A stretch of DNA of 62,553 nt from contig NC_057721.1 in NCBI RefSeq assembly GCF_004010195.1, positions 15,043,561 to 15,106,113 on the forward strand, given 5' to 3'. The stretch's first letter is position 1; every line of letters begins with the position of its first letter. The notes beneath the pieces are model-generated. The model had not been told where the DNA came from and ran no database searches. It worked only from the letters and a program-made list of their open reading frames with translations. Both the position numbers and the translations under genes were made by a program. Below, one piece after another: positions 5,338 through 62,553 of the stretch. The DNA comes from Chiloscyllium plagiosum (Eukaryota).

Positions 5338-5871
5338 CTAGATTAGAGTGGTGCTGGAAAAGCACAGCAGGTCAGGCAACATCCGAGGAGCAGGAAAATC
5401 AATGTTTCAGGCAAAAGCCCTTCATCAGGAATGAGGCTGGGAGCCTCCAGGGTGGAGAGACAAATGGAGGTGTGTGATGCTGGGGTGAAGGTAGCTAAGA
5501 GTACAATAGGTGGATGGAGGTGGGGATGAAGGTGATAGGTTGGAGAGGAAGGTGGAGCGGATGGGTGTGAAGGAAGATTGGCAGGTAGGACAGTCATAAG
5601 GATGGTGCTGAGCTAGAAGGTTGGAACTGGGGTAAGGTGGGGGGGAAGGGAAATGATGAAACTGGTGAAGTCCACATTGATACCCTGAGGTTGAAGTCTT
5701 CCGAGGCAGAAGATGAGGCGTTCTTCCTCCAGGTGTCGGGTGGTGACGGAGTGGCGGTGGAGGAGGCCCAGGACCTGCATGTCCTCGGCAGAGTAGGGAG
5801 TGGGGGGAAGGGGGGGGATTGAAATGTTGGGCCACGGGGCAGTTGTGTTGATTGGTGCGAATATCCTGGAG
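5338..5871 (-). mobile_element. Penelope-like element 3' end (GIY-YIG C-terminus + pLTR)
   Basis: Minus-strand translation SAEDMQVLGLLHRHSVTTRHLEEERLIFCLGRLQPQGINVDF. Degenerate hammerhead at 5397-5432. TSD atgatg(g/c)ctcagtg. Confidence 0.9.
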
Positions 5872-6210
5872 ATGATGCCTCAGTGGTTAACACTGCTGCC
5901 TCATAGCACCAGTGACCTGAGTTCGATTCCAGCCTCTGGCAACCGTATGTGGAGTTTGCATATTCTCCCCAATATAATTGGATAAGACTGCATGGGTTTC
6001 CTCCCATAGTCCAAAGATGTGCAGGTTAGGTGGAGTGGCCACGCTAAATTTCCCACACAGTGTCCAGAGGTGTGTAAGTTAGATGGGTTGGCCAAGGGAA
6101 ATGCAGGGTTATAGGGCAGGGAAGAGAGTCTGGGTGAGATGCTCTCTAGAGGGTCGGTGTGGGATTGTTGGGTCGAATGGCCTGTTTCCACACTGTAGGG
6201 ATTCTATGAT
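5872..6210 (+). mobile_element. HE1 SINE (head duplicated by the PLE insertion)
   Basis: ctcagtggttaacactgctgcctca...gttcgattcc head, V-domain, and HER1-type tail ggcctgtttccacactgtaggg. Confidence 0.9.
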
Positions 6211-6438
6211 GAAGTAAATTGTGAAGAAGAAAGAATGGATTAAGAGGGGAATACAGAACAGAATGCAAAAACCTAACAATTCTGTTACATTTCTACATCA
6301 ACAACAACTGAAACTTCTTGGAAGAAAACATTACAGTTGTAATAGATAATTTTCAGTACCAGAGAAACTGATTGGCAGTTACTAATCCAAATCACATACT
6401 AAAGAATATAATTGGATAAGGCTTATTTTTCACTTCCA

Positions 6439-6522
6439 AAGTTAAAAATCCGACAACAGGTTATAGTCCAACAGGTTTAATTGGAAGCACTAGCTTTCGG
6501 AGTGCTGCTCCTTCATCAGGTG
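6439..6522 (-). mobile_element. PLE pLTR fragment (second family)
   Basis: Near-identical to the arm at 30751-30840. Confidence 0.8.
6488..6522 (-). ncRNA. Minimal type I hammerhead ribozyme motif (CUA site)
   Basis: Minus strand reads CAC-CTGATGA-A-GGAG.CAGCA.CTCC-GAAA-GC-TA-GTG. Stem I is CAC/GTG and stem III is the palindrome AGCT. Confidence 0.75.
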
Positions 6523-6750
6523 GTCACTGCCAAGTTTAGTTTGTACCTATCACCTAAATACATAATTTCATACCATCCAATGCAGGTCAATAATAAAGTC
6601 AGATAACAAGATGCCCTGATTGGCAAACTATTAATTGTAGGGAGCAGCTTGAAATTTAACTTTTGGATTTCACATCTAATGTTACATATGTCCCTTGCCT
6701 GAAACTGTTGGCAGTCTTGCTGTGGTCAAATGAGCCACAGCCTCCAGGAT

Positions 6751-7837
6751 TGTTACAGAATAATTGACAATTTTTCATAAGCATGGATTAAAAACTCAAA
6801 ATGGGGAAGCCAAGTTTAAACCTAGCAGGACTCTGCAATGTGTGAACTGCAGAGTTGAAACAGACAATATTCATACAGTCAGCCCTTCCTGTCAAAACCA
6901 GACAGGCATGGAGCTGCCTGGCCAGGTGCTAATGGCCACATTGGTGTTTCAGAACAAATCATCGTTCACACCACCAGTGAACCTGCTCGTCAGAAGAATG
7001 CTACATGGATTTAATGGCAGCTAACTCAGTAGGAAGCCAGAGGCACAACATGATAAGGATGACACTTGACAGCCAAAGGTTCAAACCACATTCTGTTACC
7101 TTCATATATGGAAAGCAGTCACCTCACTGGATCTTCCCGCCCTGCCCGATGCTAGTATTGAACATAGACCACAGAATCTTTGAGAGAGGCTTGAAGAGGA
7201 GAATAAACAGGGCAACCTTGAGCCCCAAATCTGACTTCTCCACCTCCAGACGCTACCTAGCTTGCTGTGTTCTTCCAGCCTCCTGTCTGTCTATTTTGGC
7301 ACCCTCAAAAGCACTTCCACTTGGACTGGCAGCTGAGCTGCACAGCATTGGCAGTTCCTCATACCTCGTAATGAGCATCTTCAGACTGACCAACACCCAG
7401 AAAGCCAACCTCAGTGAGATGGACAGAAGACCAGAACCAACCCTAGTTGAGGGGTGAAGACCAAACGGGTGACTACAGATCCTGACACATCAGCCAAATC
7501 TCAAAAGACAGAGGAAAGGCTTATCCCAGCCTCACTGAATGGGTATGGTCTGTTTCTCAGATACCAGTTCAAATACAATGGCAGGGACCTGTAGATAGAA
7601 TGTAGCAGATCCATGGAAACACATGTCAGAAGTAAATAGTTAGTGTAGATTTGAGGCTGTTTACTGAAAACCACTGAAGAGATTGAAAGATTGGATAGTG
7701 TTTAATTAAACGTCCAACAGTAGACTCTGATAAATATTGTTTTTGCTTAATAAAGTTTGTTGGACCTTCCTCTGATTCTTGTCCCCTTTGTCTAACTTAC
7801 CACCTAATGTGTCAAACTTAAAAACTAAGGTTACTAC
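6751..7837 (+). mobile_element. Possible solo LTR
   Basis: Begins TGTTAC, ends GTTACTACA, with AATAAA at ~7749. No clean TSD. Confidence 0.25.
7232..7299 (+). mobile_element. PLE pLTR 3' fragment
   Basis: gacttctccacctccagacgctacctagcttgctgtgttc is the reverse complement of the pLTR at 15130-15200. Confidence 0.75.
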
Positions 7838-9017: not shown

Positions 9018-9239
9018 GGACCGAAAATAACAAATGCTGGAGATCACAGCAGGCCAGACAGCATCCATGGAGAGAGAGCAAACTAACATAAGTCTAGATG
9101 ACTCTTCAGAGCTCTGATGAAGAGTTATCTAGATTCAAAACGTTAGCTTGCTCTCTCTCCATGATGCTGCCTGACCTGCTGTGATTACCAGCATTTGTTG
9201 TTTTCAGTAGATTCCAGCATCTGCAGTAAATGTGTTCCT
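9018..9239. mobile_element. Palindromic PLE-derived mini-element (two inverted pLTR halves)
   Basis: Inverted arms around the centre cagagctctg (~9107-9116). TSD agagtaggga(a/g)ctt at 9004-9017 and 9240-9253. Decayed hammerhead at 9110-9148. Confidence 0.9.
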
Positions 9240-10501
9240 AGAGTAGGGAGCTTTTTGTGGGAAGGAGGACATAAGTGGGTGGAAAGGCTATCATTGAGTA
9301 AGTCTGTAAATGGTGAAAAGCTTTGCACTTCAGATTGGTATTGATTCTGAAAGAAAGTGACAAAAGGGTATGGGGACCAATTTTCCTTTGGTACTCTCAG
9401 TATTAAAAAGAACCTTGGAGCTGGTCATGATTGGGTCTTAAGCAGAAACATTTTAGAACAATCGCCAAGATTGGATACCCTGCTGGTCTCTCCTGCTGTT
9501 GACCTTAAGTGATGCCTCCAAGATTCTGTGCACTCTCATCCTTGACCCTTCAGCCAACCTGAAGTAGGGCACTTTGTGCCTTCAGTCGAAATGGGTACAA
9601 ATAGCCTCCGACGGATGCTCATGTCCTAAACCTGCAGACGTCAGCTTTCAGACCCCCAAACCAGTTCAGATGATGGTAATCAGCCAGTCAGCTCAAACTC
9701 ACAAGTGAATTTGTTTTATTGGAGGCCAGTCATTTGGTCCCTTTTCAGCAAGATCATCTTTACTGATGAATATCTGGTTAAGTGTACAGCATTCCTCTCC
9801 TCTAGAAGAGTACAATTGTGGCCCCCTTTTTCTCTTGAGGGCTCTGCATGACTGGCTCACATTTTCTAGGCTGAACACTCAAACTTATTTACAAAGATCC
9901 ACAATAAAATCATGAGATAGCAAAGTCGGGAGTGTTCATCATCCTTATTAGTTCCAGGCCTTGAGTGGTCTAACTAGAAGTCCTTAAAATGAGCATTGTC
10001 AGGTGACCTGAAGAGGTGGTTATTGGGAGAAAGAGGGAGCAGAGTCAGTGCTGACCCATCTGCACTTCCATCTCTAGCCCACTATTGTCCATCATCACCA
10101 AGGGGAATATTTCCCAGTCAATTGTGAGGTGAATCTATTAGAATCCAACAATGTCTGTAGCCCTGTTAAGGAGTTTAGGCCTTGACCTTACCCATTATGG
10201 AAAAATCATCTTGATGCAACATATTACACAACTGTAATAACTTATTAGTCTTCATTTTTGGCTGAGTGTTTCAGTGAATGTAAATTAGGTCAGCTTTGCC
10301 AATCATTAGTCAAATATCAATTACCCAACTCATACTGACATACCTCCAACTGCTGCAACTTTCATCCAGAGAGAAGGTGGATGTAACTAAAGGGGTTACT
10401 TTAGGCAATAAATGCTCGGTATTTAACCATGACATGAGGTGGAATGCTGCCAGTACACCACTTGTTATAATTCAGATAGCCAGTTGGTGAAAGATGTTAC
10501 C

Positions 10502-10575
10502 AGAGTAGGGAGCTTTTTGTGGGGGAAGGAGGACATAAGTGGGTGGAAAGGCTATCATTGAGTAAGTCTGTAAAT
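10502..10575 (+). repeat. Local ~74 bp copy of 9240-9311
   Basis: Near-identical agagtagggagctttttgtgg...gagtaagtctgtaaat. Confidence 0.9.
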
Positions 10576-13120: not shown

Positions 13121-13966
13121 GTCGATAGAGAGTGGAGCTGGAAAAAGCACAGTCAAACAGCTGAGGAGGAGGGATTCAGTGTTTCAGGTGGGAAGCTTTC
13201 ATCAGGACTGGGGGACAGATAGGGAAGGGGGCTGCGAAATAAATAAAGAGGGGGTGGGGCTGACAGAAAAGGTGGGTGGGTTGGTGATAAGAGGTGGCTG
13301 TGATTGGTCAGTGGGAAGTGTGGAGTGGGTAGGTGGGAAGGAAGACGGACAGATAGGGTCAGGTTAAGGGGGTGGGTCAGGTGGAGAGAGAGGGCTGGGG
13401 GAAAGGTGGGTGGATGCAGGTAGAAGGTGGCTGTGATTGGTCAGTGGGAAGGGTAGAACAGATAGGTGGGAAGGAAGAAGGACAGGCAGGGTCAAGTTAA
13501 AGGGGTAGGGTGGAGGAGGAGAGCTAGGTCAGGGGTGATTTGGAAACTGGTGAATTCTCTATTAAGGCCATGTGGTTGTGAGTTCCTGAGGCAGGAGATT
13601 AGGTGGCCTTGTGTTGACAGTGGAGAAGGCCCAGAATGGACATGTCGTCAGGGGAGTGGGAGGGGAAATTGAAATGGCAGGCACCAAAAGGTGGAGTTGA
13701 TTGGAGTGTACAGACACTTCCCACTGATCAATCACAGCCACCTCCAACTCCATCCTATTCCTATTCTATTCCACCCACCTTTCCTCCAGCCTGACCCGCC
13801 CATTTATTTCGTAGCCCCCTTTCCCTCCTCCAGTCCTGATGAAAGGTTCCGACCTGAAACACTGACTTCCATCCTCCTCTGATGCTACTTGACCTGTCGT
13901 GCTTTTTCTAACTCAACTCTCTATCCACTTTGACTTTCCAGCATCTTCAGTTCTCACTATCTCCAA
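13121..13966. mobile_element. PLE with inverted pLTRs (5'-inverted insertion)
   Basis: Perfect 15-bp TSD actgcaagggtgaca at 13106-13120 and 13967-13981. Hammerhead motifs at 13174-13209 (-) and 13832-13867 (+). Internal ~125 bp tandem repeat. Confidence 0.9.
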
Positions 13967-15100
13967 ACTGCAAGGGTGACAACTGATGGATTGTGGAGTT
14001 GGGGAGCAAAGGTAGTAACTGTCCTGCTGAGTAATAAGAAGACCATACGCCACCACCTTGTTAGAACATGATGTGATGACTGGCTACGAGCTACTTCTGA
14101 CTAGGCCAGAGTGCTGCTATCTATCAGCTTCCCTATGCAAACATAGTGGGTTGTTCTATAATCTGTGGTGGACGAGAGACCACTAACAAGTCTCAGCAAG
14201 AAAGATTCCTGTCCGAGATAACATGATTCACTTTATGACATCTCAATAATGATACATGGGTTACATTAACGTTTAGGCACATTGACCATTGCTACTTAGA
14301 GGGAGGTCGGTTCTCCATCAGAAGTTCATGCTGTTTCTCCATCTGCTCAGTGCTCCACACCATTGCTTAGCAGAGCTCCAACTTAGCTCCTAGACTAATC
14401 CTTTCATAATTATTATTTTATGCAACAGCACCAAGTCTGTCTAGTTTCTACTGATGCTGGAGCTCTATGAAACTGTTTGATTGGGTAGCCATGGGGAATA
14501 TATTTACTTGTGAGGGTCAACCAAAACAAAGTGTCATAAATATAGAGTTACCACCAATAAATTCAATGGGGAATACAGGATCAATTCCTTCCAGTCAATG
14601 TGGGAAAATGTGGATCTATGGAGTCGTAAAAGGAGTAGCATAGATGTATATAGGATAGAGAGGACTAAAAGATTCTTAAGCTCAAACTTTGTAGACGCAG
14701 TATTTGTATGGATGTTTCCATTCAATTTCTGGTGATGGCCACAATATCCTGTTTCTGTGTAGCTATCTTCATCAGCAATTCACCAATTTCATTTTAATAC
14801 ACCGTGTTCACATAGATATGCTTGAACCCTAATTTCTGGTCAATGGTAAGCCCCAGGATGTTGACAGTGGGGGAATTCAATGATAGCAAAGCCATTGAAT
14901 GTTAAAGGAAGATGATTTGGCTCATAGAAAGTTGATTGTGCATCCTGGTTCAGCTATTTATCCCATTTGTCACTCTGCCACTGGTCAGCAAATGCACTGC
15001 TTATTCAAATACAAAAGTTGATGATGTTGACAGAATTTCAATGTGTAACAATATTAATGAACAGATGTTCAAAGGCTACATGCTGCCACAAACACATTTG

Positions 15101-16066
15101 GTTAGAGACAAAAAAAACTGCAGATGCTGGAATCCAAGGTAGACAAGCAGGAGGCTAGGGGAACACAGCAAGCCAGGCAGCATCAGGAGGTGGAGAAGTC
15201 AACGTTTCAGGTGTAACCCTTCTTCAGGACTGGGGGTGGGTGCAGAGCTGCAGGTAAAGGTGAGTGGGTGTGGTGAGGTGGGATAGGAAAACACAGGTAG
15301 AGGGTAGAGCCTGGTTGGTCAATGGTAGGAATGAATACATTTGGTGGTAGGGAGCAGTGGAAGGGATAGGCAGGAGCTAGTCGGGGGAAGGGAAGGGAGA
15401 TTATTTGAAATTGGAGAACTCAGTGTTAAGTCCTCTGCGCTGTAGGCTGCCCAGGTGGAAGATGAGGTGTTGTTCCTCCAATTTGCAGTCTGATTTGTTG
15501 TGGCAATGGAGGAGGCCAATGATGGTCATGCCAGAAAGGGATCGGTATGGGGAATTAAAATGAGCAGTGACTGTAAGGTCCGGTCAGCCCCTGTGGCCTG
15601 GCTGAGGTGCTCGGTAAACCGTTCTTTAAATTTATATTTGGTCTTCCCGATGTAGAGAAGACCACACTGGGAGCACCTGATGCAGTAAACTAGGTTGGAA
15701 TAGAGGCAAGTGAATTTCTGTCCCACCTGGAAGGACTGTTTGGGGCCTTGGATGCAGGTGAGGGGGAGGTGGTGTACTGGCCAGTTTTGCATCTTTCCCA
15801 GTTGCAGGGGAAGGTACCTGGGGGTTCGGGGGTAGACTGACGCAAATCAATGACGATCAAAGGGAAAAGGCAGAGAGGGGTGAGGAGAGGAAGATGTTCC
15901 TGGTGGGGTCTAGCTGGAGTTGGCAGAAGTATTTAAGGATAATGGGTTGGATGCAGAGACTGATGGGGTGGTAGGTGAGGACAAGGAGGATCCTGTCTTT
16001 ATTGCTTTTAGTGGAGGGAGGAGGTCTTAGAGCAGTGGAATGGAATGGAGGAGGTGTGATGGAGGG
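15101..16066 (-). mobile_element. Neptune-type Penelope-like element, 5'-truncated (linker + GIY-YIG + pLTR)
   Basis: NKDRILLVLTYHP, Cys-linker GTFPCNWERCKT, and FTCLYSNLVYCIRCSQCGLLYIGKT (VY...YIG). Frameshifted. Confidence 0.92.
15197..15231 (-). ncRNA. Minimal type I hammerhead ribozyme motif (GUU site)
   Basis: AGTC-CTGAAGA-A-GGGT.TAC.ACCT-GAAA-CG-TT-GACT. Stem I is AGTC/GACT and stem III is the palindrome ACGT. Confidence 0.8.
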
Positions 16067-25330: not shown

Positions 25331-26212
25331 TCAGAATGAGACGGTCAGACAGTTTGTGGAATTCTGACCAAAGCAAATGTCGATTTGTCTCTGTGTAAAG
25401 GAGAAGTCTGGCATCCTTACTGCCTCAAGATTCCCAAACTCCTAAACCCTCACTCGTATCGACCTGGTGGCAAGTGGCTACCAAGGGCAATCTCCACATC
25501 TAAAACTGACCAGTTCACGGCATACCAGTTGCCCAACAAAGTGAAATCGGGTTAAAGCCTCATAACCAGGGACCTCTCCAGCATCAGAACAACATCAATA
25601 CCTTTCACCAACTGATCACCCAAAAGTTAACACTGGTCCCAGTGATTGTACACAAACTTTGGACCTGCACTGAAAAATCCATACCAGAGAAAACAATTCT
25701 CCTTTGCGCTATGTTAACTTTTAAACATATTAACTATGCTGATGAAGCAAAACACAACAAAAAGCACAAATCAATTAGCCAGAGCATTAAAACTGGTGCT
25801 GTGTATTAATTAGATCCTATCTGGGTTATGTTCAAGTCCACTGCAAGTAGACTGGATAACAAGTCACTTACCATTTCAGAAGATTGGGAAAAAAATAGAG
25901 CCAAATTACGAAGAAAATCAATAAAAGAAAGTATACTTGATAATACCATGGAAAGCTCGATTACCCTGAGAGATTAAACTGCTTGGCAATCCATGGTTCA
26001 GTATTTATATTGGTTTGTAGCTTTCTTGAGATAGTATTGGTGTTTGATTCAGTGTCACACTATGATTGTGCCATCTGAAAACCTGATAAAACATTTGACT
26101 GTGTTAAAATTCTTCTGGAGGTGGCAGATATCTTGGGCCTAAACCATTTCTAAACACAGTTGATTCAAGATTCCAGTTGAAGACTTTGCTGCTGATCAGA
26201 ATTGTAAAATTG

Positions 26213-26350
26213 CTGGTCCAATGATCCTTCTTCAGAGTACATTCTGAAAATGTTCTGAAGGGTCACTGGACCAGAAACATTAACTCTGCTTTCTCTCCAC
26301 TGATGCTGCCAGACCTGCTGAGCTTTTCCAGCAATTTCTGATTTTGTTAC
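26213..26350 (+). mobile_element. Degraded PLE pLTR with a short inverted arm
   Basis: ctggtccaatgatccttcttcaga ... tctgaagggtcactggaccagaaacattaactctgc. Confidence 0.65.
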
Positions 26351-26659
26351 ACTAATTGTATATGTGCACTAGTCCCTGTAGGAGAAAAATGATCCTTGTA
26401 GGTAGGGTCTTTAAACATGGAGTGTGTGTTGGCCTGCAGCTACTATATGATTCTGGCTGACTAAGAAACTCGTTGTTACCATCAAAAGCACATCAGAAAG
26501 ATTTAGATGGTTTTTTATCATATTTGTCTATGTTATGATACACTAACTGTGGTCATCAAATCCTGACGTGGGACTTGAATATGGAACTTCTGGCTCAGAG
26601 GTAGGGACACTACCCCAATGCCACTAGAGCATTTATAAACTAAACATACAACAGTAGAC

Positions 26660-27126
26660 TAAGAGAAAGTGAAGACTGCAGATGTTGGAAATCAGAGTCA
26701 AAACGTGTGCTGCTGGAAATGCACAGAAGGTCAGGGAGCATCCAAGGAGCAGGAGAATCGACATTTCAGACATAAGCCCTTCATCAGGAATGTGGGGGCA
26801 GGGGGCTAAGGGGGTTGAGAGATAAATAGGAGGAGAATGGGGCTGGGGGTATGGAAGGTAGCTAGGAAGATGATAGGTGAATGTAGGCGTGGGATATTGG
26901 TAATAAGTCAGAGCAGATAAGTGGGAAGGAAGATAGACAGGTAGGACAGATCAAGAGGGTGGTGCCGACTTGGAAGGTTTGATCTGAGACAAGGTGGAGA
27001 GAGGGGAGATGAAGAAACTGGTGAAATCAACATTTATGCTGTGTGGTTGGAGGGTCCCAAGGCTGAAGATGAAGTGTTTTTCCTCCAGGCATCTGGTGGC
27101 TAGGATTTGGCGGGGGAAGTGGCCCA
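26660..27126 (-). mobile_element. Penelope-like element 3' end
   Basis: Homologous to 5338-5871. Hammerhead motif at 26756-26791. Confidence 0.88.
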
Positions 27127-29004
27127 GTTATGGAAGTTGATAAAACGTATTTGTGACTACACAATGTTAAGGCAGTTAAGAAAGGTCAGAAGTTTGTCTG
27201 GTATGAGCGATGACAATGTAGGGCTGTTCAGTTAAAATAGGGTGAGCTCTTAAAAACACAAACTATGGAAAAGGTATTTCTCAGCAACATGTAACAATTA
27301 AAAAAAAACTCTAATCCTCATTTATATATTACACGGCGTTCTCAGTAGAAATGTTATCTTCTGTTTAAGCTTCCAAAGTTTTAAATGTCTTCCTCCTCCC
27401 ACACCAGAGTGATTCTTCCTGTGCCCTCTTAGATAAAGTCCCTTCACTCAACACTTTGAGATAATTGAACGGACCTCAAGTAGCAGAACACCAAGTGGTT
27501 TTGCAGTCTTTAAATTCTTCACAAGCTTAGCCTTTATTAACAGGGGATATATCTCTATCAGCTGTCTACTTGGTGATAAGCTGAAAAGACTCCTTTTTCC
27601 CTGCATGGCACACAATGTCTGTTGTAGATCTTCTCCAGATCTCGCCAGCTTACTATCTCTGAGAGTGCACACAGCAAAATAAAGATGTCTCCTCTTGATT
27701 GTTGGATATTTCAACCCATACTTAAATCATTTTTCACCTATGCCCCTGTCATCTTGGTCACATAGACTTGTCTCTGGGCATATTTCAGTGGAGATCACGC
27801 CCCCTACTTCAAACAGCTCCATGTTAACTTCAAGTAATAAATACACGTGAACATGTATTCATCTAGCAGTCCTAACATCATGTTGTGGATATTTCTTGCT
27901 GAGGTATCACCAAATATATCTGCAGCTTGGACACAACTATCCAGCAAACACATTTGAACAGCTCTCTTCAGATAGTCCAAATGTTTTGGTAGTCAGCTGC
28001 AGAACTGTGTCATATGGTATTAGGACACCTACCACACTGCAACATGAACATCTCAAGCTTATTTACATATTGACAATAAAATATTGGTTTTACCATTGGA
28101 AAGCTTTGCTTTGTAGTACAAAATACTCTGAAGTTATCAGTCAAAACTATTTTGAAACATTGATTAGAGCAGTTTTATCTCTGTATGTAAAATTTCTAAG
28201 AGATTGGTAAGAAGATACCAGTAACCCAAGGGTGGTGATTATGTTCTTTGAAGCAAAGCAATTAAAAATAATCAGACCCAATTATTAACTAGATGGGAGA
28301 TGAGATTTTGTGCACTGAAAACTGAGACATTCTGTAATTACATTAGTTACCTTATTTTGGCAACATCCTGACAAACAAGTAGTTAATTAACCAAACATTG
28401 TCATTTTTTCAAACACCAAAAACAAATTGGTCTATCACATTACAATTACTTAGGCAGCAACATTTACGTATATTGTACTATTGTGAAATTCCTTTACTAT
28501 TTATGTCTATTCAGATAAACAAGCAAATGGAAAGTTACTGAAGTGTTGATGATATGATGTTATCAATTATGCCAGTCCACAATTTCATACTGCCTTGTCC
28601 TGAAAATCGATGATGCGTGCTCGGGAACAGTTTCCTCATTTATCTATCGCCCTATGTTTGGAATGATGTCACTGATATGGAATGGTTTAAACAATGTTGA
28701 GGGCTCCATTTTTTTTTTAGGAAAGATTTGGATAGTCCTGCAGTGCCTGAGAGCCATGGTTTAAAATGGAACTCATTTTACTGAAAGTATCTAATCAATT
28801 CTGTAAATGGTCATCCTTCATGGCAGCAGATTTTGGTACAATATTTAATAAATGAGTACATACATAGGTAATATAATACAGGAGATCTCAGTTGTGCACA
28901 AAGCCCCTAGCCCAAATCTACAAATATGCACTGCCGAGCAAAGGATAAATAAATAACAGGAATACACAAATCAACTAACCTTTATCACTATTACAATGAA
29001 AATA

Positions 29005-30710: not shown

Positions 30711-31047
30711 TAGTCATGATTTGGAGACGCCGGTGTTGGACTGGGCTGTACAAAGTTAGAAATCACACAAACACCAGGTTATAGTCTAACAGGTTTATTT
30801 GGAAGCACTAGCTTTCGGAGTGCTGCTCCTTCATCAGGTGAGTGTGATGAAATCATTATCAGGAGAAAGCAGGAATCTGGATCTGAGGTTCCCATCAATC
30901 AGCCATGATATTATTAAAAGACAGAACTTAAGGAGCTGACTGGTTCTTAATTCATCAATCACCTGATGAAGAAGCAGCACTCCAAAAGCTAGTGTTTCCA
31001 AATAAACCTGTTGGACTATAACCTGGTGTTGTGCGATTTCTAATTTT
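30711..31047. mobile_element. Inverted pLTR pair enclosing captured local DNA
   Basis: Arms at 30711-30841 (-) and 30958-31047 (+). Spacer 30850-30955 matches 31653-31763. Confidence 0.9.
30806..30840 (-). ncRNA. Minimal hammerhead ribozyme motif (CUA site)
   Basis: CAC-CTGATGA-A-GGAG.CAGCA.CTCC-GAAA-GC-TA-GTG, identical to 6488-6522. Confidence 0.75.
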
Positions 31048-31154
31048 GAGAAAAAAAGACCATCAGAGATGATGGGTTGTATTATTGGAGGACAGTACAG
31101 AAATAGAGGGGACAAGAGCACGGAGGAATTTAAAGATGAATTGTAGACATAACA

Positions 31155-31770
31155 AATAATTAGAAAAGCTAATGGAATATTGTAATGTCGCACAGGCAGA
31201 AATAGAGAGATTATGCCTCAGTTATATAGCTGGAGACAATGGCTGGAGTATTGTGTACAATATCTTTAAGAAAAGATGTAGGTGCATTAGAGACAATTCA
31301 GACAAGGTTTATTAGACTAATACTTGGAATGGATAGACTGTCTTATGAGGAAAGGTTGGACATGTTAACTTTGTATCTGCTGTTCAGTAGAGTAAGAAGA
31401 GACTTGATTGCAACAAAAAAGATCCTGAGGGGTTTTGACAGGGCAGACGTAGAGGGGAAATTTCCTTGCATGGGAGAAGGTAGAATTAGGGGGCTCCCTA
31501 TTTTAAAAAAATCAATGGTCATCCATTTGAAACAGTTGAGGCAAATTTTTTTCTCAGTATGTTCTTCAAAATTCTTCCTGAAAAGGTGGTGGTGGCAGAG
31601 TCCTTGAATATTTGTAAAGGTGAAGTAATGGATTATTGTTAAGCAACAGGATAAATCATTATCAGGAGAAGGCAGGAATCTGGATCTGAGGTTCCCATCA
31701 GCTAATCCATGATACTATTAAAAGACACAGCAGACTTAAGGAGCTGACTGGTTCTTAATTCATGTGTTCA
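31155..31770 (+). mobile_element. CR1 LINE 3' fragment
   Basis: ORF LRKDVGALETIQTRFIRLILGMDRLSYEERL. Confidence 0.88.
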
Positions 31771-35647: not shown

Positions 35648-36830
35648 AATTTTAAAAATTATGACAATGATCACATTTACCTTCAGGCCATGAAAAGCAT
35701 GACGTAAATACAAATAGTTTTTCCTTTTTGCCACAACCACCCTTGGTGTTAGTAACCTCCACATTCTCACAATTCTCCAAGTAAAAAGGCTTCTCCTGAG
35801 TTTCTTCGACTCTATTCTGTTAGTTAAACTATAGGAGTTCTTGAGTTTGTGAAAAGTGTTACATAAAAGCATTTTGTTTTAGCACGAACACTTTCACCAG
35901 GAAGCTAAACTCTCATCGCGGAAAGGTCACTGTTAACTCCGATTTGTCTCCACAAATGTTGCCAAACCTGCTCAGGTTTTCCAGAAATGTTTGTTTTGTT
36001 TCACACTGAGGCCTCCTCCATCTGCAGCCAAATGAGCAAAGAGCCGCTCGGATATTCCTCATTGTACTTTTACATTGCTGCAACAAAGCCTGTTCTCCAG
36101 ATCACTGCGATTCACAAGCAGTTTATATTAATCTCATCTCATTAAAGGGCTTGGAATTGATAGAAATTGATCAAATAAAAAGGCCATTGAAATAGTTGAT
36201 GCTGTTCTTCACTCCATCAGGATTGTGGCTGTGCGAGAAGCCTGGTGGTATTAGCCTGCACAAATCTAATTTATTCTCTCAATTCCCACTTGACTCCACT
36301 GTGTTGATTTGACTTTACATTGCCAAGAGATGGGTTGCTGCTCATGAAGATTGATGGTAGTGATTTGATCGAGGAGAGATGGTTGCTCATTGTGAGAAAC
36401 TGCAATGATGCGCAGTAGTTGGTTAGGAGCAGAAAAATAGAAATGCAACAGTGTGATTTTAATAAAACATATCCTTTTACAGCTGACTGCTTCAGGCTAA
36501 TACAACAATTCAGCAGCATTTTAGTGTCATATCCTTGGCAGTTAACCTGAGCTTTCAGTTCTATATGATAAATACTATTTAATATCTGAAAGCTATGGTT
36601 ATATTGCGTAAGATCTAGGCTCCATACTGTAACTAATATTTATACATTACATTATTTATAAAATACGTGTCTACATTCTAACACCTTCAAGAGAGTCTGA
36701 TTAATTATGTGATACTGCAGGAAATAAGCTTTATCTTGTTGCATTGTTTTCAAATGGTAATAATTCAACCAGAAGCTTCACTATTTCATTTATTCAATTT
36801 TTCCTTGCCTCACGTGATCTTCTGTCTTAC

Positions 36831-43700: not shown

Positions 43701-46318
43701 ATCTGTCAAGGTAAGTTTAATTCTGGGAACTAAATTGTCGACTAATAATGCCAGCTGGGATCTAAACAACTGGTTATTGGACACAATGGAAGCAAGGGGT
43801 TTTGGGACACAGCGAGATAGTGTGGTTACTGTAGAAGATCAACCACAACCTTATTTCATGACAATGAGCTTTAAGGATCACATTGCCTTTGTTCCCATTT
43901 CTGAAGCTCTAATATACTTAACATACTTGTGAACTGTGGACCATTGTTCAATAAATTTCTATAGTTATGACCTGAAAAATCACAAATATTACAGTAATTC
44001 ATGAACTAGCAACATTTTAGAATTTGCTTGTTACACATCCCATTCAATTTATCTTTCCACTGATTGCAATGTTGAATGGATTCCCAGGTAGACGAGTAAA
44101 AGTAATCACCATGCATTAATTTGAAGAACACAGAAATTGAGGGAGGAAAGAACATTTCTGTGTGAATCAGTAAAATTTGGACTGAATTGTCTGACTTTGA
44201 GGACAGACCTTTAATCATTTGAAAACAAACATTGAGTCCACTCACCTTTGCAGCACCAAAAATGGCCTCAATGCCCTTTGGTAGGAGAGTAAATTGGCTA
44301 CTGTTCCTGCTCCTAACTGACGTGCAGTAAACTCTGGTGAAACTGTATGGTTGTCCTTCTATGTTAAAATAACTTGCTGCCCTTCAATATAAAAGCTCAC
44401 ACTTGGGTACCTGGATGAAGTATCAAAACAATAATGACTTGGACACCATGCCCACCAAAAATGCAACGTAAAAGCAGCATATAATCTTGTGTACAAATAT
44501 AGATCATCGGAGATGTACAGCACTGAAATAGACCCTTCAGTCCAACTTGTCCATGCCGATCAGATATCCTAACCTAATCTAGCACCATTTACCAGCTCTT
44601 GGCCCATATCCCTCCAAACCCTTCTTATTCATATATCTATTCAGATGCCTTTTAAATGTTGTAATTGTACCAGCTTCCACCACTTCATCTGGCAGCTCTT
44701 CCCATACACGCACCACCCTCTGTGTGAAAAGGTTGCCCTTTAGGTCTCTTTTATATCTTTCCCCTCTCACCCTAAACCTATGCCCTCTAGTTCTGGACTT
44801 CCCCAGGGAAAAGATCTTGTCTATTTATCCTATCCACGCCCTTCATGATTTTATAAACCTCTATCAGGTCACCCCTCAGCTTCCGATGCTCCAGGGAAAA
44901 AAGCCCCAGCCTATTCAGCCTCTCCCTATAGCTCAAATCCTCCAACCTTGGCAGCATCCTTGTAAATCTTTTCTGAACCCTTTCAAGTTTCGCAAGTTTC
45001 GTCCCTGCGATAGGAAGGAGACCAGATTTGGACGCAATATTCCAAAAGTGGCCTAACCAATGCCCTGTGCAGCCACAACATGACCTCCCAACTCCTATAT
45101 CCATTGCTCTGTCCAATAAAGGAAAGCATACAAAACACCTTCTTCACTATCCTATCTATCTACAACTCCAGTTTCAAGGAACTATGAACCTGCACTCCAA
45201 GGTCTTTGTCAGCAACGCTCCCTAGGACCTTACCATTAAGTGTACAAGTCCTGCTCTTGTGGCACCTCGCATTTATCTAAATCAAACTCTATCTGCCACT
45301 TCTCAGTTCATTGGCCCATCTGATCAAGATCCCATTGTAATCTGAAGTAACCTTCTTCACACCTCCAATTTTGTGTCATCAGCAAATTTACTAACTATAC
45401 CTCTTACGCTCACATCCAAATCATTTATATAAATGATAAAAGTAGTGAACCCAGCACCGATCCTTATGGCACTCCACTGGTCACAGGCCTCCAGTCCAAA
45501 AAGTAACCCTCCACCATCCTCTGTCTTCTACCTTTGAGCCAGTTCTGTATCCAAATGGCTAGTTCTCCCTGTATTCAATCTGATCTAACCTTGCTAATCA
45601 GTCTCCCGTGAGGAACCTTGTTGAACACCTTACTGATGTCCATTTATATCACATCTACCACTCTGCTCTCATCAATCCTCTTTGTTACTTCTTCAAAAAC
45701 TCAATCAAGTTCATGAGACATGGTTTCCCACCCATAAAGGCACGATGACTACCCCAATCAGTCCTTGCCCTTCCAAATACAAGTAAATCCTGTCCCACAG
45801 GGTTCCCTCCAACAACTTGCCCATCACTGATATCAGGCTCACTGGTTTATAGTTCCCTGGCTTTTCCCTAACACTTTTCTTAAAAAGTGGCACCACATTA
45901 GCCACCCAGTCTTCCAGCACCTCACCTGTGACGATCAATGATACAAATATCTCAGCAAAGGGCCCAGCAATCACTTCTCTAACTTTCCAGAGTTCGAGAG
46001 TACACCTGATCAGGTCCTGGGGATTTATCCACTTTTACCCATTTCAAAACATCCAGCACTTCCTCCTCTGTAATCTGGACATTTTTCAAGGTATCACCAT
46101 CTATTTCCCTACAGTCTATATCTTCCATGTCCTTTTCCATAGTAGACACTGATGCAAAATACTCGTTTAGTATCTCCCCCATCCCCTGCTGCTCCACACA
46201 AAGACAGCCTAGCTGATCTTTGAGGGGAGAAAGTGAGGTCTGCAGATGCTGGAGATCAGAGCTGAAAATGTGTTGCTGGAAAAGCGCAGCAGGTCAGGCA
46301 GCATCCAGGGAACAGGAG

Positions 46319-46354
46319 AATCGACGTTTCGGGCATAAACCCTTCTTCAGGAAT
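46319..46354 (-). ncRNA. Minimal hammerhead ribozyme motif (GUC site)
   Basis: ATTC-CTGAAGA-A-GGGT.TTAT.GCCC-GAAA-CG-TC-GATT. Confidence 0.75.
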
Positions 46355-46388
46355 CCTGAAGAAGGGCTTATGCCCGAAATGTCAATTC
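46351..46388 (+). ncRNA. Minimal hammerhead ribozyme motif (partner, CpG-decayed)
   Basis: GAATC-CTGAAGA-A-GGGC.TTAT.GCCC-GAAA-TG-TC-AATTC. Confidence 0.6.
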
Positions 46389-47733
46389 TCCTGTTCCCTG
46401 GATGCTGCCTGACCTGCTGCGCTTTTCCAGCAACACATTTTCAGCTCTGATCTTTGAGGGGCCCAATTCACTCCCTAGTTACCATTTTGTCCTTAAATGT
46501 ATTTATAAATTCCTTTTATAAGATTCGCCTTAGCCTTATTTGCCAAAGCTATCTCATGTTCCCTTTTTGCCCTCCTGATTTCTCTCTTAACTATACTCCT
46601 GCTACCTTTATACTCTAAGGACTCACTCTGTCTATCCTGTCTATATCTGACATATGCTTCCTTCTTTTTCTTTACCAAACCCTCAATTTCTCTCGTCATC
46701 CAGCATTCCCTATACCTACTACCCTTTCCTTTCACCCTAACAGCTGTGTACTATCTCTGGACTGTCATTATCTCATTTCTGAAGGCTTCCCATTTTCCAG
46801 CCGTCCCTTTACCGGCAAACATCTGCCCCCAATCAGCTTTTGAAAGTTCTTGCCCTATACCGTCAAAATTCACTTTTCTCCAATTTACATCTTCAACTTT
46901 TAGATCTGGTCTATCCTTTTCCATCATTATTTTAAAACTAATAGAATTATGGTCGCTGGCCCCATTGTGCTCCCCCAATGACACCTCAGTCACCTGCCCT
47001 GTCTTATTTCCCAAGAGCAGGTCAAGTTTTGCACCTTCTCCAGTTGGTACATTTACAGACTGAATCAAAGTTTTCTTGTACATATTTAATTTCCTGTCCA
47101 TCTAAACCCTTGACACCATGCCAGTCCAAGTCTATGTTTGGAAAGTTACCATACCATAACCACCCTATTATTCTTACAGATATCTGAAATCTTACAAATT
47201 TGTTTCTCAATTTCCTGATGACTATTAGGGGATCTATAATATTATCCCAACAAGGTGATCATCCCTTTATGTCTCAGTTCCACCAAATCATTCCCTGGAT
47301 ATATTCCCAGGAATGTCCTCTCCAATTCCATCAGTAATGCTATTCCTGATCAAAAACTGGACTGCCCCTTCTCTCTTGCCCCACCTTACACACACCCCAC
47401 ACACCCACCCCACCCCTGCATCCTTCATGTAGCATTTACATCCTGGAACATTAAGCTGTCAGTCCTGTCCATTCCTGAGCCATGTTTCTGTAATTGTTAT
47501 GATATCCCAGTCCCATGTTCTAACCATGCCCTGAGTTCATCAGGCCTTCCCTGTTAGGCCTCTTGCATTGAAGTAAATGTAGTTTAATTTATCAGTCCTA
47601 CCTTGTTCTCTCCTTTGTTCATGCTTGCCCTAACTGTTGAATTCACTTCTTTTCCCAACTGTACCAATCTCAGATTAATCTCTTTCCTCACTACCTCTCT
47701 GGTTCCCATGCCTAAACCCACCCCCCCACTAGT

Positions 47734-53260: not shown

Positions 53261-53837
53261 CAGATGAATCAAATTGCAAACTATTGCATTTCTTTAAGCC
53301 TTCTTTTTGCGAAGTGCAACATGTTGGTTTGCATACCTGACAGTGTGAGGATTCATCTATCGCAGACATTTCTCAAAACTTTCTTAGAGATAAGGGGTAA
53401 AATCTGGATGTTTGATCATTTTCAATGTAGGAAATTTTACACGTTCCAAAGATTCAATGGAACACCCCATGACTTAATTTTCAGTGCACAAATGTGTGCA
53501 CTCTCTCAACAATGTATTAACCAGACACATGGGCAGAAGCTTCCTAGACCCTGAATGTTGTGGGCACAGTGAGAAAATAGTGAACATTAAATGAGATCAG
53601 CAGTAAGAAGCCTTTCGATATTGAGCAAAATGTCCTACGTTGCAGGCCAGTATTGAAGGGCGAGACAAGTTTCTCATGAGTGAGTAGAGATCCATTTGCA
53701 TGTATCAACATCTCACAATTAATGTCACCTCATTGCTTTGTAGTTTCCCATTCTCGACAATAGCCATCCTCAAAGTCAGAGCAGGTCCTCAGCAACTCCA
53801 GCTTACTCCTTGCTCCTGTGGACCTCCATGTAGGACA

Positions 53838-55046: not shown

Positions 55047-55337
55047 TTGGAGATAGCGAGGACTGCAGAGGCCAGCAAGTAAGAGTTGATAAAGAGTGGA
55101 GCTGGGAAAGGCACAGCAGGTCAAGCAGCATCAGAGGAGCAGGAGAATCGATGTTTCAGGCAGGACTCTTCATCAGGAGAGGGGAGGGGGGAGGAGGCTG
55201 AGAAATAAATCAGAGGAAGGGGATGGGGCTGGAGGAGGTGGAGAAGGTAGTTGGAATGATGATAAGTGGTTGTGATTGGTCAGTGGGAAGTGTGGAGCAG
55301 ATAGATGGGAAGGAAGATGGACAGGTTGGATCAAGTT
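55047..55337 (-). mobile_element. PLE pLTR
   Basis: Homologous to 26660-26960. Degenerate hammerhead at 55146-55180. Confidence 0.85.
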
Positions 55338-56147
55338 ATCGATTGGGGCAAAGAGCCTAATGTTGATTTAGGTAGCTGCCTCAATCTCACGTATCGTGGT
55401 GTACACAGCAAGCACACTGCGTGTGCTTCACCCAGGTAGATGGAGTAATCCTCAGTCAAAACAAGCTGGACATCCATCAGTCAGAGGTTGCAGGCACAAT
55501 AAGCACAGGAATAGACAATTCAGCTCCTTAAAGTCTGCTCTACCATTCTACACAATCATAACTGATCTTACGTTGGCCTCAACACCACTTTCCTGCCTGC
55601 TCTCCATTACCTTTAACCAGTTACTAATTAAATTTCTCTCCCCCCACCCCCCACCCACAAATTTATTCAGTATCTCAGACTCAGAAGCTGTCACTCATTG
55701 CATGGAGAGTGACCGCTGTTCCCTTCCATCGTGATGCAGATTCCAAGTGTGCAATGGGCTTGCAAATGGAGGCCATAACACCATGAGAGGAGGGTAAGAG
55801 TTTCTTTCTGCGAGGGGAAGCACTCCAGCCAAGGTTATTAAAGTTTCCAGAAGAAGTAATAGTACAGAAGGTTCATGGATCTTACTTCAAGCACAGCAGA
55901 TAAGGGGACAGTCAACCCAGGAGTGAGGCTGTTGTACTTAAATTCGCACCGTAAACATAGTGGGGAGGTTTGCTAGTGTGACTTGAGAAAGTTTAGAGGA
56001 GTTTCAGAGGGGGGGGGAGGTAATCAGAACATGTGGGAGCAGAGTAGGTCAGTCTGTGAGTGAATGAGGAGAAGGTAGAGTTGGCAAGTTGGATACAAAC
56101 TTGTCTTGGCCAAAGAAGGCAGAGGGGTAGTGGTGGAGGGGTGTTTT

Positions 56148-56489: not shown

Positions 56490-57725
56490 TGACCAGTGCT
56501 GTTCTGCAGGGATCAGCGCTGGGACCTCTGACTTGAAAGAAAAATGTCAGTGGTCTGATTAGAAAGTTTGCAGATGACATAAAAATTGGTGGAGTCATGA
56601 GGAAGGTTATCAAAGAATCCAAGCGGGATATAAATCATCTGGAAAGTTGGACAGAGAAATGACAGATTGAGGTGGACAAAAATCAGAAAATTGCTGCAAA
56701 AATTCAGCAGGGCTGGCAGCATCTGTGGAAAGAAAGCAGAGATAATGTTTCAGATCCAGTGAGGTGTGAGGTGACGCATTTTGGGAGGTCAAATGCGAGA
56801 GGGAAAGTATACAGTATATGTCTGGATTCTGAGGAGCATTGATATACAGAGTCCAAGTCCATAGATCCCTGAAACTGTCAACACCTGTGGATAAGGTGGT
56901 TAAGAATACATGCATCATGCTTGTCTTCATTGGTCAGAGCACGGAGTATAAAAATTGGCAAGTCATGCTGCAGATGTATGTGACTTTGGTCAGGCCACAT
57001 TTGGAGTCCTTTACACAGGCAGCTCTGCAAAGGGTGCAGAAGAGATTTATCAGGATGGTGCATGGATTGGAGTGTTTGATAAAAGAGAGGTTGGACAAAC
57101 TTGAATTGTTTGCACTAGAGTGACAGATGCTGAGGGGTGACCTGATAGGAGTATTTAAAAAAATGATGAGAGGCATGGACAGGGTGGATTTGTTGGAGTC
57201 TCCTTCCAATGGTAAAAATGTTAAGTAATAGGGGGCATAGGTTTAAAATGAAAGGGGGAAGGTTGAAAGGAGATGTGCGAGGAAAATGTTTTACAGAGTG
57301 CAGTAGGTTGAAAAAATGTGGTGCTGGAAAAACACAGCAGGCCAGGGAGCATCCGAGGAGCAGGAGAATCGACATTTCGGGCTTAAGCCCTTCTTCAGGG
57401 GGCTTATGCCCGAAATGTCGATTCTCCTGCTCCTCAGATGCTGCCTGGCCTGCTGTGTTTTTCCAGCACCACATTTTTCAACTCTGGTACTCCAGCATCT
57501 GCAGTCCTCACTTTCTCCTAGAGTGTAGTCGGTGCCTGGAATGCACTCCCAAGGGGAGGTGATAGAAGCAGATATGATAGCAATGTTTAAGAGGCATTTA
57601 GAAAGACATGAGCAGGAAGAGAAGCAAACCATATGCAGGCTGATGGGGTTAGTTTAGAATAGCATGTCAGCACAGACATGTTGAGTCAAAGGACCTGTTC
57701 CTGTGCTGTATTGTTCTATGTTCTT
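56490..57725 (+). mobile_element. CR1 LINE 3' fragment with two PLE inserts (~56675-56760 and 57305-57518)
   Basis: KFADDIKIGG, MYVTLVRPHLE, LQRVQKRFIRM. Confidence 0.85.
57305..57518. mobile_element. Palindromic PLE mini-element
   Basis: Inverted arms. TSD agagtg(c/t)agt. Hammerhead at 57367-57402 (-); the partner core is deleted. Confidence 0.92.
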
Positions 57726-57734
57726 GTTCAATGG

Positions 57735-60145: not shown

Positions 60146-61124
60146 GTTAACTCTACTAATATGGAACTTATTGACATCTGGTTCCTTTCAGCTTGATAAG
60201 TGTAACATTTGTAATAATTTCCAGTTTGCTGTTTACTGCTACATGAGGGCGGTCCCAGAGTTCCACTCTTGCAAGCGATCTACCTGCTAGCCTATTCACT
60301 TACCTCACCCAACCTAATGCCCCTTTCATTCAAGCACAGTGACACCAGACATTGAAAATTTGCCATATGCAAACTAGTGCTGCAAAATTCTGTTTCTTTT
60401 TACCTGAAATCGTCTAGCACTGCAATAGAGTTCAGAGGGTCACCACACTCTGCATTTCAAGGGAAGCCGAACTTAAACCAATGGCAAACATGGGACAACG
60501 TCAGCATGTGGGAAAATTCAAGCAAAACTGCAAACCGAATAGGATTGCTGCTGTTTGAAAAATCTAGACTATCATTTACCATGATTAACTATCTTCATGT
60601 AGCAAGCACATTGCTGGAAGAACTGTTTCACAAATCAATTTCTTTATTAGAGTTATGTTAACAAAACCATGATATGAAATACTCTGAAAGGAGGATGAAG
60701 TATTGTGCCATAATGCTACATGACTACAATGTGAAATGATACACATGGTATCAACATTCTTCTGCATAAATGCAAAGGATGGAAAATTCACTTCCATCAT
60801 TTGAGTAATGGACCTGTTACTTGAGAGAATTTTTGAAGTCTAAAGTTAATAATTCAGCCTGATGGCTTTGAAGATGGAATAAATTAGAATAAACTAGTGC
60901 AGGTTGGAAACATGATTTTATGAAGAAATAGGGAGATAAACCAAAATAGGAGTTCCATGTTTTTAATTCCATGTCACTATGCAGCCATTGTAGGAATAAT
61001 CAAATACAATATTATGCAATGTCATCCGTTGATATGTCTGTAGATCTTAAATAACATTGCTGCATTTTATAGTGATCAGGAATAAAGAAAATTTTAAGCT
61101 AGGATTTGGGTTTTGAAACAAGTA

Positions 61125-61326
61125 TAGTCAGATGTACAGCATGAAAACAGATCCTTTGGTCCAACTCGTCCGTGCTGACCAGATATCCTAAGTTAATCTA
61201 GTCCCATTTGCCAGTATTTGGCCTATATTCCTCTAAACCCTTCCTATTCACATACCCATCCAGATGCCTTTTAAATGCTGTAATTGTACTAGCCTCCACC
61301 ATCTCTTCTGGCCGCTCATTCCATAC
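61125..61326 (-). mobile_element. HER1 3' end
   Basis: agatgtacagcatgaaaacagatcctttggtccaac tail. Confidence 0.9.
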
Positions 61327-62461
61327 CCTGCACTTGATATTCTAACAATGTTTGAATCTAGGTAGCCTGCACATACAAGAATATCTCTGCCAAAGGCAAT
61401 TGGATACTTCTTGGCTTGAACTTTCACAGGCAGGCAGAGTGCAGAGCCACTTCTGACGTGTCCTGAGAAGAGATTTCTGGGGGTGGCGTGTGTGGCTGCT
61501 CATCTAGTTGGGTACTTCCTGGTACCACACAGTCTATGAGAGTTAGGGGCACCTGGACTGAGACCTAGGTACGGGTTGCTATGTTTTCATGTCAGAGCTC
61601 TAATGGCTGGGGTGATGGAGTGCAGATATATGCACTTCCCTAGGAAGCCGAGAGACTACAGAAGCTGCAATCTGTCCATTGCAGACAACCAGATTATTCT
61701 CAATACAGCAGATCTGCACTCCTGCAGCCTCTGGGCCACATCTCCCATATTCCTGTCTGGTGCTCTTGTTCCTCCCTGTGCATGTCAGCACAGTCCCCAA
61801 TTGTTAACATGAGGTTTCTCTCCTGTCTGCAGCATTTTCTTCCTGAAGAGGGCTGTTGCAGTGAGGTCCTCACCAGCTTGTGCTCCTAAACATTCCACAC
61901 CTGATCCTCCCACAGAGAAGCAATGAGTTAGCAGGGGGTGTGTAGGAAGCAGACTTGCAATGCTGCCTCTGAGGCCCATGAACTCTCTTCCTGAGGAGTC
62001 AGGAGGCTCCCTTCTGGTGAGCCAGCCTATTTCCCCGCTGGTGTCGTGGACATCCTGCTGGTACCTGAGAGACACAAGAGAATGTGTTAGAAGTGGTATG
62101 CAATGAATGAGACTGATCACAGGGTCACTGTGCGAATGAAGAACAGTACTTACACTGTTGGCAGGACGTGGATGTTTCAGCATTCCTGCAAAGATCAGGA
62201 GTCTCTCCTTATAGGGTGAGCAACTCAACATCAGGCACTCCTCTTCCTGTCCTGGCTGTTATTTTTCCTGCATTGGAAGTGAAAGAGGCTGGCACAGCAT
62301 TTGGTGCTAATGCCGGTGAGTAGGGGTGGATATGTTGAGGTGCACAGAGGGACAGCAAAGACACCAGGGAGGCTAGGGAGGGTTAGCAGGATGGAGAGTT
62401 CGTAGTCCCTGTTACAGAATCACAACACTATTTCTCTTTGCTTGATACCTTCCAAATACCT

Positions 62462-62553
62462 GGCAGCATACAAGGTGCAGCGAAATCGACGTTTCGGGCA
62501 AAAGCCCTTCATCAGGAATAAAGGCAGTGAGCCTGAAGCGTGGAGAGATAAGC
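62462..62553 (-). mobile_element. PLE pLTR, runs off the window end
   Basis: Homologous to 5375-5460. Confidence 0.85.
62484..62519 (-). ncRNA. Minimal hammerhead ribozyme motif, intact core (GUC site)
   Basis: ATTC-CTGATGA-A-GGGC.TTTT.GCCC-GAAA-CG-TC-GATT. Confidence 0.8.

Follow-up and report, generated by a model that had tools for sequence, protein, structure and literature searches.

Minimal type I hammerhead motifs in the terminal repeats of Penelope-like elements of a carpet shark

Minimal hammerhead ribozymes (min-HHRs) were described in the Neptune, Poseidon and Xena elements of fish, all of them Penelope-like elements (PLEs), and they are abundant in fish, coelacanth and Xenopus (Cervera & de la Peña 2014, PMC4209133). 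Here we examine a window of 62,553 nucleotides from the shark Chiloscyllium plagiosum (contig NC_057721.1, positions 15,043,561 to 15,106,113), in which a sequence-only reading had listed about 15 hammerhead motifs. These motifs are real minimal type I hammerhead sequences that belong to the end-pieces of PLEs. With the published min-HHRs they share a type I core, an extra nucleotide before stem II and a loopless palindromic 15.2-16.2; in both cases several covarying families occur in one genome, most copies are solo truncated PLE copies, and opposite-strand pairs lie 100-700 bp apart (PMC4209133). The class has been on record since 2014, and the catch of the motifs is in itself ordinary.

Our preferred explanation, in which we have considerable confidence, is that the hammerheads lie in the terminal repeats of PLE remnants, that they are likely passengers of uncleaved element RNA, and that they are now likely to be decaying neutrally.

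Motifs, families and their link to Penelope-like elements

Each of the 15 listed positions, given here as leftmost plus-strand coordinates of the window, holds a hammerhead core or a recognisable remnant of one, and ten of the 15 read on the minus strand. A search of the kind that the sequence-only reading had proposed, with a min-HHR descriptor (intact CUGANGA, GAAA and UH, and at least 4 bp in stem II and 2 bp in stem I), returned 7 matches in the window and 0 in each of 30 dinucleotide shuffles. When stem I was required to have at least 3 bp, 3 matches were left against 0 in the shuffles, and when one core mismatch was allowed, there were 9 against a mean of 0.33 (12 shuffles). Exactly five of the seven matches have a Watson-Crick palindromic stem III, and these are the five cores that had been called intact (6488, 15197, 30806, 46319 and 62484). 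Loose CTGANGA...GAAA matches that have no stems are also present in the window. The covariance-model search that had likewise been proposed failed to recover the motifs: an Rfam cmscan of the window gave 8 matches at E<=10, none of them to a hammerhead family. The best of these matches, MIR856 at 9022-9206, lies far under its gathering score and reflects only the palindrome found there. An nhmmer match at 37335-37375 (E=0.008) was rejected, as it is not a hammerhead, and two metagenome pattern scans gave 0 matches each.

The motif-plus-tail modules group into families A (76-96% within the family), B (62-71%), C (84-91%), D and E, and a Poseidon remnant. The C and Poseidon modules are near background in their similarity to the other groups, and the tails of D and E are 60-73% similar to A and 49-67% to B. 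Base pairs were counted from a structural parse of 14 copies, which excludes the family E copy at 26255 with its core deletion; the parse was used because a MAFFT alignment of the 15 motifs shifted family C by one column. The best copies of families A, B, C and D together form Watson-Crick pairs at 32 of 36 positions, and at no more than 17 once the 3' halves are swapped between families. Not one of 20,000 column shuffles reached 32 pairs. Covariation of stems I and II between families, as claimed from the sequence alone, therefore has strong support, which carries no clean p-value, as the copies were hand-picked and the families are related.

The core is intact in 10 of the 14 parsed copies, and a bulged A between positions 9 and 10.1 is present in all of them. 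The 10.1-11.1 pair is G-C in eight copies, G·U in four and A-U in two. A loopless stem III palindrome (ACGU or AGCU) is kept in seven copies, and the non-Watson-Crick cases in the other seven are all CG>TG or CG>CA; the stem III losses are thus CpG decay rather than covariation, and the changes within families are decay as well. The ACGU-type stem III is common to families A, B and D. The pairing of stem I across families holds overall, with an exception that had not been listed: family A, the commonest, has the stem I AUUC/GAUU, with U·U at the third pair in 4 of 7 copies (46319, 62484, 5397 and 26756), so that the mismatch occurs in two of the five intact copies (46319 and 62484). At the palindrome centre at 46351-46355 one strand has AATC and the opposite strand ATTC. 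The former pairs fully with the GATT of family A, and this junction can therefore make a better stem I than the usual ATTC.

Coding remnants directly link to PLEs the Neptune-type families A and B as well as a sixth family of Poseidon type, the clade names being provisional until placed on a reverse transcriptase (RT) tree. The frame at 15529-15846 on the minus strand scores 26.2 bits against the Pfam GIY-YIG model (cut-off 22.6). In the remnant at 15.1-16.0 kb that contains this frame, the linker zinc finger is degenerate and its last Cys is lost. The sole relative found for the frame, the protein P0003, has an RT, a CX4CxxC linker and an endonuclease, which is the layout of Neptune and Nematis (PMC8557442). 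By tblastn, P0003 matches the DNA upstream of four motifs, namely those at 15227 (E=2e-15), 5428 (3e-8) and 26787 (0.004) and, weakly, the one at 13205 (0.2). As to the clade of families A and B, Neptune elements are marked by a C-terminal GIY-YIG and a linker finger of the form CX2-5CxxC; here GIY-YIG is over its cut-off and P0003 has the full linker, but Nematis shares that linker. A second kind of remnant (32407-33162, minus strand), in which an RT thumb is joined to GIY-YIG, is 70-73% identical to the Stegostoma tigrinum proteins P0001 and P0002, and the linker finger is lacking in all three. P0002, a predicted protein, reads through the pseudo-long terminal repeat (pLTR), and its C-terminal residues match the translated hammerhead region 32385-32424, which implies the same Poseidon-type motif in Stegostoma tigrinum. 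Protein identity to Stegostoma tigrinum proteins is 70-78%, which fits the reading of the DNA as that of a shark; one of three protein searches gave no match.

Families D and E are joined to PLEs through the similarity of their tails alone, and family C through its anatomy alone. The claim that several PLE families carry the motifs is supported, directly for A, B and the Poseidon-type family by their coding remnants.

Insertions and their ends

The 15 motifs collapse to 12 insertions; the count stands for motifs and falls for separate insertions. Adding the five tail stubs and the single Poseidon-type remnant brings the number of PLE-related insertions to 18, which span about 5.6 kb or 8.9% of the window (boundaries set by hand). 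Absent from the earlier list were partial partner arms at 9109 (minus), 26235 (minus) and about 57400 (plus), a damaged Poseidon-type motif near 32385-32424 (minus), and the five tail stubs. The insertions, together with their target-site duplications (TSDs) and the likely donor of one spacer, are as follows.

1534..1622, plus strand: tail stub, family E-like, core lacking; nhmmer E=1e-10; 9-bp TSD.
3479..3552, plus strand: tail stub, family A, which begins near GAAA.
5337..5872, minus strand: Neptune-type 3' fragment with endonuclease end, pLTR, decayed family A hammerhead (5397-5432) and short tail; tblastn with P0003, E=3e-8; 13-bp TSD at 5324/5873, 12 of 13 identical.
6440..6523, minus strand: solo hammerhead and tail stub, family C, intact at 6488-6522, which starts 4 nt upstream of the core; likely TSD at 6430/6524 (10 bp, 1 mismatch, weak score).
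7230..7300, plus strand: tail stub, family B, with its start about 3 nt or less from the cut site.
9018..9239, both strands: family D head-to-head palindrome centred on the stem I strand AGCT (9110-9113), arms 81% identical; plus motif with G12>A, minus motif with deletions; 14-bp TSD at 9004/9240, one mismatch.
13121..13966, both strands: family B inverted pair, a long minus arm into the endonuclease and a short plus arm; decayed motifs at 13174-13209 (minus) and 13832-13867 (plus); perfect 15-bp TSD at 13106/13967.
15100..16039, minus strand: Neptune-type 3' fragment with thumb end, degenerate linker zinc finger, GIY-YIG and pLTR; family B hammerhead with intact core at 15197-15231 and a G10.1·U11.1 wobble.
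26207..26353, both strands: family E inverted pair, plus arm with a 3-nt core deletion (26253), minus arm with an internal deletion; 16-nt spacer; weak 7-bp TSD.
26659..27127, minus strand: Neptune-type 3' fragment with a long tail; its family A hammerhead (26756-26791) is CpG-decayed.
30716..31049, both strands: family C inverted pair, intact at 30806-30840 (minus), decayed at 30960 (plus); spacer of about 110 nt; no TSD found.
31653..31763, plus strand: likely donor of that spacer, about 90% identical to 30850-30955 (E=4e-22; next best match in the window 0.018).
32340..33162, minus strand: Poseidon-type 3' fragment with RT thumb, GIY-YIG and pLTR; damaged hammerhead near 32385-32424.
35920..36000, plus strand: tail stub, family E-like, with a deletion.
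46228..46446, both strands: young family A palindrome centred on stem I, arms 97% identical; intact-core motif at 46319-46354 (minus), decayed motif at 46352-46387 (plus); perfect 15-bp TSD at 46213/46447.
55050..55338, minus strand: family A pLTR fragment with decayed hammerhead (55146-55180) and long tail.
56678..56766, minus strand: stub, family E-like, which begins in stem II.
57309..57519, both strands: family A palindrome, arms 96% identical; minus arm with core kept and stem I lost, plus arm beginning at stem II.
62459..62553, minus strand: family A copy, core intact (62484-62519), U·U in stem I, tail shortened; runs off the window end.

Four of the 17 insertions examined are flanked by TSDs of 13-15 bp with scores of 10-15 (46213/46447, 13106/13967, 9004/9240 and 5324/5873), and random position pairs score at least 10 in 8 of 2000 cases and at least 13 in none. 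The distance from the cut site to the 3' end of the insertion falls into two classes of seven arms each, 51-67 nt and 93-103 nt, which appear to represent the one-sided tail of 30-40 bp known from other PLEs. Six insertions are head-to-head inverted pairs, and in all five that could be measured one tail is short and the other long; the family C pair is bounded by homology.

The other end of the insertions lies at the front edge of the ribozyme more often than at the cut site. Among 24 arms, 18 reach past the core, and their templates were therefore uncleaved; ten begin 1-6 nt upstream of the core. Counted by insertion, 6 of 13 that span the core end within these few nucleotides (p ~0.002 under a simplistic uniform 100-nt null with hand-set offsets). 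In family E contigs from two species (2287 and 2264 contigs) only TCAGTT is shared upstream of the core before majority agreement is lost, and opposite-strand joints at this site account for 9 of the best 15 joints listed. A stronger statement, that most family A copies stop at stem I, was weakened, since the loose ends at 26791-26792 largely run on into the pLTRs of other subfamilies and the drop in depth there is therefore no proof of stopping; the hot spot of family A ends at stem I concerns a fraction of copies and is not the rule.

Ahead of the family B motifs at 13832, 13209 and 15231 lie a pyrimidine tract and a CAG; stem I starts with the AG of this CAG, an arrangement much like a 3' splice site. 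In D. virilis an intron end maps to helix I (PMC4209133). As a general rule, the view that the 5' hot spot marks such a splice site is unsupported: the CAG of family B lies at -2, but the nearest such AG of family A lies about 8-21 nt upstream, and no shared 5' exon was seen.

The centres of the palindromes and pairs vary, from an AGCT overlap, a 3-nt centre and a junction at stem II to spacers of 16 nt and 110 nt. The longer spacer (30850-30955) is about 90% identical, in the same orientation, to DNA 700 bp downstream, with no comparable match elsewhere in the window; it is a templated insertion at the junction, and the family C palindrome was therefore assembled at its own site. The arms of one family A palindrome are 96-97% alike, and 76-88% alike to other insertions.

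The sequence, covariation, coding remnants, TSDs, tail lengths and CpG decay are observed in the window itself, and the mechanism that we propose adds nicking, priming sites and cleavage, which are inferred or taken from other PLEs. The element protein would nick both target strands about 13-15 bp apart, and reverse transcription would start downstream of the cut site, at a distance of either about 60 or about 97 nt, the two sites presumably priming on opposite strands. The cDNA would be copied back through the intact ribozyme with a frequent stop just past stem I, giving solo stubs or head-to-head pairs, whose two ends may be joined by short homology or repair. The ribozyme itself would be active, weakly, as a dimer or with the element protein, in source elements only. 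Fold-back of a single cDNA explains the near-identical arms equally well, and cDNA self-priming has been proposed for PLEs (PMC3846280). Candidates for the pile-up of ends at stem I are an RNA start, a strong stop, and annealing at short imperfect palindromes (AGCT, CAG-TC-CTG, CA-CC-TG).

Activity, genome-wide load and alternative explanations

When folded as isolated RNA, families B and C are predicted to take the hammerhead structure with probabilities of 0.10-0.16, and two family A copies with 2.5e-5 and 2e-3; for 62484 a fold that buries the core wins. Four palindromes are predicted to form near-complete hairpins of -129 to -200 kcal/mol, in which two of the five intact motifs (30806 and 46319) would be buried. 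At most 3 of the 15 copies (6488, 15197 and 62484) are both intact and outside a palindrome, and the arms of opposite-strand pairs cannot dimerise with each other on a single transcript. The sequence-only reading implied many working ribozymes, which is not supported; most copies, being mutated or predicted to be locked in hairpins, are likely silent fossils. The function of hammerheads in PLEs has been called unclear (Craig 2021, PMC8557442).

RNA reads were taken from one single-cell poly(A) run, which gave 2606 reads on both strands, with depths of 749 and 492 over the family A motif. Depths on the two sides of the cut site are 703 and 654, and 473 and 351, with no dip and no pile-up of ends. 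These reads show only that uncleaved transcripts are common.

Several observations weigh against our explanation. The window holds no coding remnant for families C, D and E, and the TSD is weak or absent at 13 of the 17 insertions examined. The stub at 7230 starts near the cut site, as a cleaved template would have it, and is the sole such stub. All seven solo core-bearing copies (5428, 6519, 15227, 26787, 32424, 55176 and 62515) lie on the minus strand (p=0.016, post hoc), a skew that could mean selection against one orientation; with the stubs included, 8 of 12 solo insertions are on the minus strand (p=0.39), and four of the five coreless stubs are on the plus strand. The RNA library was fragmented and poly(A)-primed, with unknown strand chemistry, and is therefore a weak test of cleavage. 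Lastly, C15.2 is retained in 84% and C11.1 in 72% of the RNA reads, and many expressed copies therefore keep these positions.

For the genome-wide load, contigs of DNA runs from two species were aligned to 26200-27200 at 80% identity, and 113,814 and 100,303 contigs were placed. Relative to unique flank, the summed depth is higher by factors of about 3.5x10^5 and 3.3x10^5 over stem II of family A, and of 2.2x10^5 and 2.7x10^5 over the tail of family E; only the order of magnitude is used because summed depth is no copy number. By a second route, five intact motifs in 62.5 kb correspond to a density of 80 per Mb (95% interval 26-187), and a genome assumed to be 3 Gb would then carry 0.8-5.6x10^5. 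Both estimates uphold the claim of a very large load; the contig depths, a crude measure, suggest roughly 10^5-10^6 motif copies genome-wide. Published counts are about 4,000 motifs in coelacanth and 9,000 in Xenopus (PMC4209133), and 126,247 in axolotl (PMC7229834), so that, with methods differing, a load on par with or above that of axolotl is suggested. A PLE expansion has been reported in whale shark introns (10.1101/443036). With copies in such numbers, carpet sharks would be well suited to work on ribozyme evolution, and intronic strand skew in them would offer a well-powered test of cutting in vivo.

A bolder form of our explanation, which we put forward only tentatively, holds that this is the densest hammerhead load yet reported for any vertebrate (several 10^5), that template RNA would start at the 5' strand of stem I, that a dimeric protein would prime two opposite-strand cDNAs from two start sites, and that the cDNA 3' ends would anneal through the imperfect palindrome of stem I and the core start. 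If so, the front edge of the ribozyme, and not its cut site, would set the transposition unit in several families.

Alternatively, many dispersed copies might be active, cutting host pre-mRNAs as cis or trans dimers or with the PLE protein and so shaping the shark transcriptome. The copies are very dense and transcribed on both strands, monomers of families B and C reach hammerhead folds with the probabilities given above (0.10-0.16), the ACGU-type stem III of families A, B and D permits heterodimers in principle, and the 7:0 strand skew of solo core-bearing copies points the same way. Yet just three of the 15 copies are intact outside palindromes, the correct fold of the commonest family has a probability of 2.5e-5 to 2e-3, and read depth does not dip at the cut site. 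Moreover, min-HHR monomers are described as inactive and their dimers as weak (PMC4209133), and the motif of the green anole needs protein for cleavage and leaves no RNA-seq ends (PMC11167929). We regard widespread activity as improbable.

Still somewhat less credible is a self-propagating non-autonomous family, retrozyme- or short interspersed element (SINE)-like, in which stubs and palindromes are copied as ready-made units. It would account for the uniform size of the TSD-flanked stubs and for a summed contig depth over the motif about 12x that over the endonuclease end, though other subfamilies drop below the 80% cut-off there. It fits poorly with centres that differ from pair to pair, with a 110-nt spacer copied from DNA 700 bp away and hence formed at the locus, and with family A palindromes whose arms resemble each other (96-97%) more than other insertions (76-88%); furthermore, retrozymes are defined by tandem units, and the window's five tandem repeats are all free of motifs. 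Chance resemblance to a degenerate motif of small size, for which the absence of a hammerhead family from the Rfam cmscan and the stemless CTGANGA...GAAA matches might speak, is refuted by the 30 shuffles with 0 matches, the covariation and the fixed position between pLTR and tail, and deserves almost no credence.

Other features of the window are noted here. About 80 bp beside the family D palindrome (9233-9311, which includes the right TSD copy) recur 1.26 kb downstream at 10495-10575 with 95% identity. Direct duplications at 1-637/1988-2624 (99%), 18576-18822/18823-19073 (96%) and 39589-39740/39749-39898 (92%) reflect either recent duplication or assembly artefact. Fragments resembling the 3' part of long interspersed elements (LINEs), with a weak RVT_1 match, lie at 38332-41066, 44499-46861, 52650-54625, 849-998, 20099-20289 and 61128-61326, and from their motifs we take them to be CR1-like. 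A second repeat family of about 300 bp, presumably SINE-like, is found at 5881-6206, 18457-18704, 21108-21428, 50087-50413 and 51249-51558. No host exon emerged when the longest 145 of the 246 non-repeat frames were compared with Pfam.

Comparison with described systems

The scale in carpet sharks and insertion ends at the front edge of the ribozyme were not found in the literature searched, although the dimer paper of Lünse et al. and Repbase/Dfam may cover shark copies, and preprint supplements may contain counts for chondrichthyans. The second point bears on the unsettled mechanism of PLE transposition, as the ends lie at the front edge and not at the cut site. The portions of the 2014 min-HHR paper that were examined contain no shark and no mention of 5' ends clustering at stem I (PMC4209133). 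That paper gives about 4,000 copies in coelacanth and 9,000 in Xenopus, where our cruder method points to some 10^5 or above, and the copies of the window further differ by a stem II of only 4-5 bp and by the U·U in stem I of the commonest family.

Endonuclease-positive PLEs (Arkhipova 2013, PMC3846280; Craig 2021, PMC8557442) resemble the insertions described here in their head-to-head copies, junction palindromes, one-sided 30-40-bp tail, TSDs and captured host DNA. The TSDs, however, are 13-15 bp here and 8-10 bp in Adineta, and many inserts of the window consist of just hammerhead and tail, with the junction on stem I. The in vitro study of green anole Poseidon (Frangieh 2024, PMC11167929) fits our observations in that two internal RT start sites downstream of the ribozyme define the tail, both strands are nicked and extended, and uncleaved RNA serves as template. 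In that system the two strands are equal in start site, whereas in the window all five measured pairs have one long and one short tail.

Non-LTR (non-long terminal repeat) retrozymes (Cervera 2020, PMC7229834; Li et al. 2026, bioRxiv 10.64898/2026.07.22.740005), reported in one chondrichthyan by the same sources, are likewise non-coding, hammerhead-bearing, PLE-related and very numerous. They are arranged as head-to-tail tandems, whereas the copies described here are solo or head-to-head, and the five tandem arrays of the window carry no motif.

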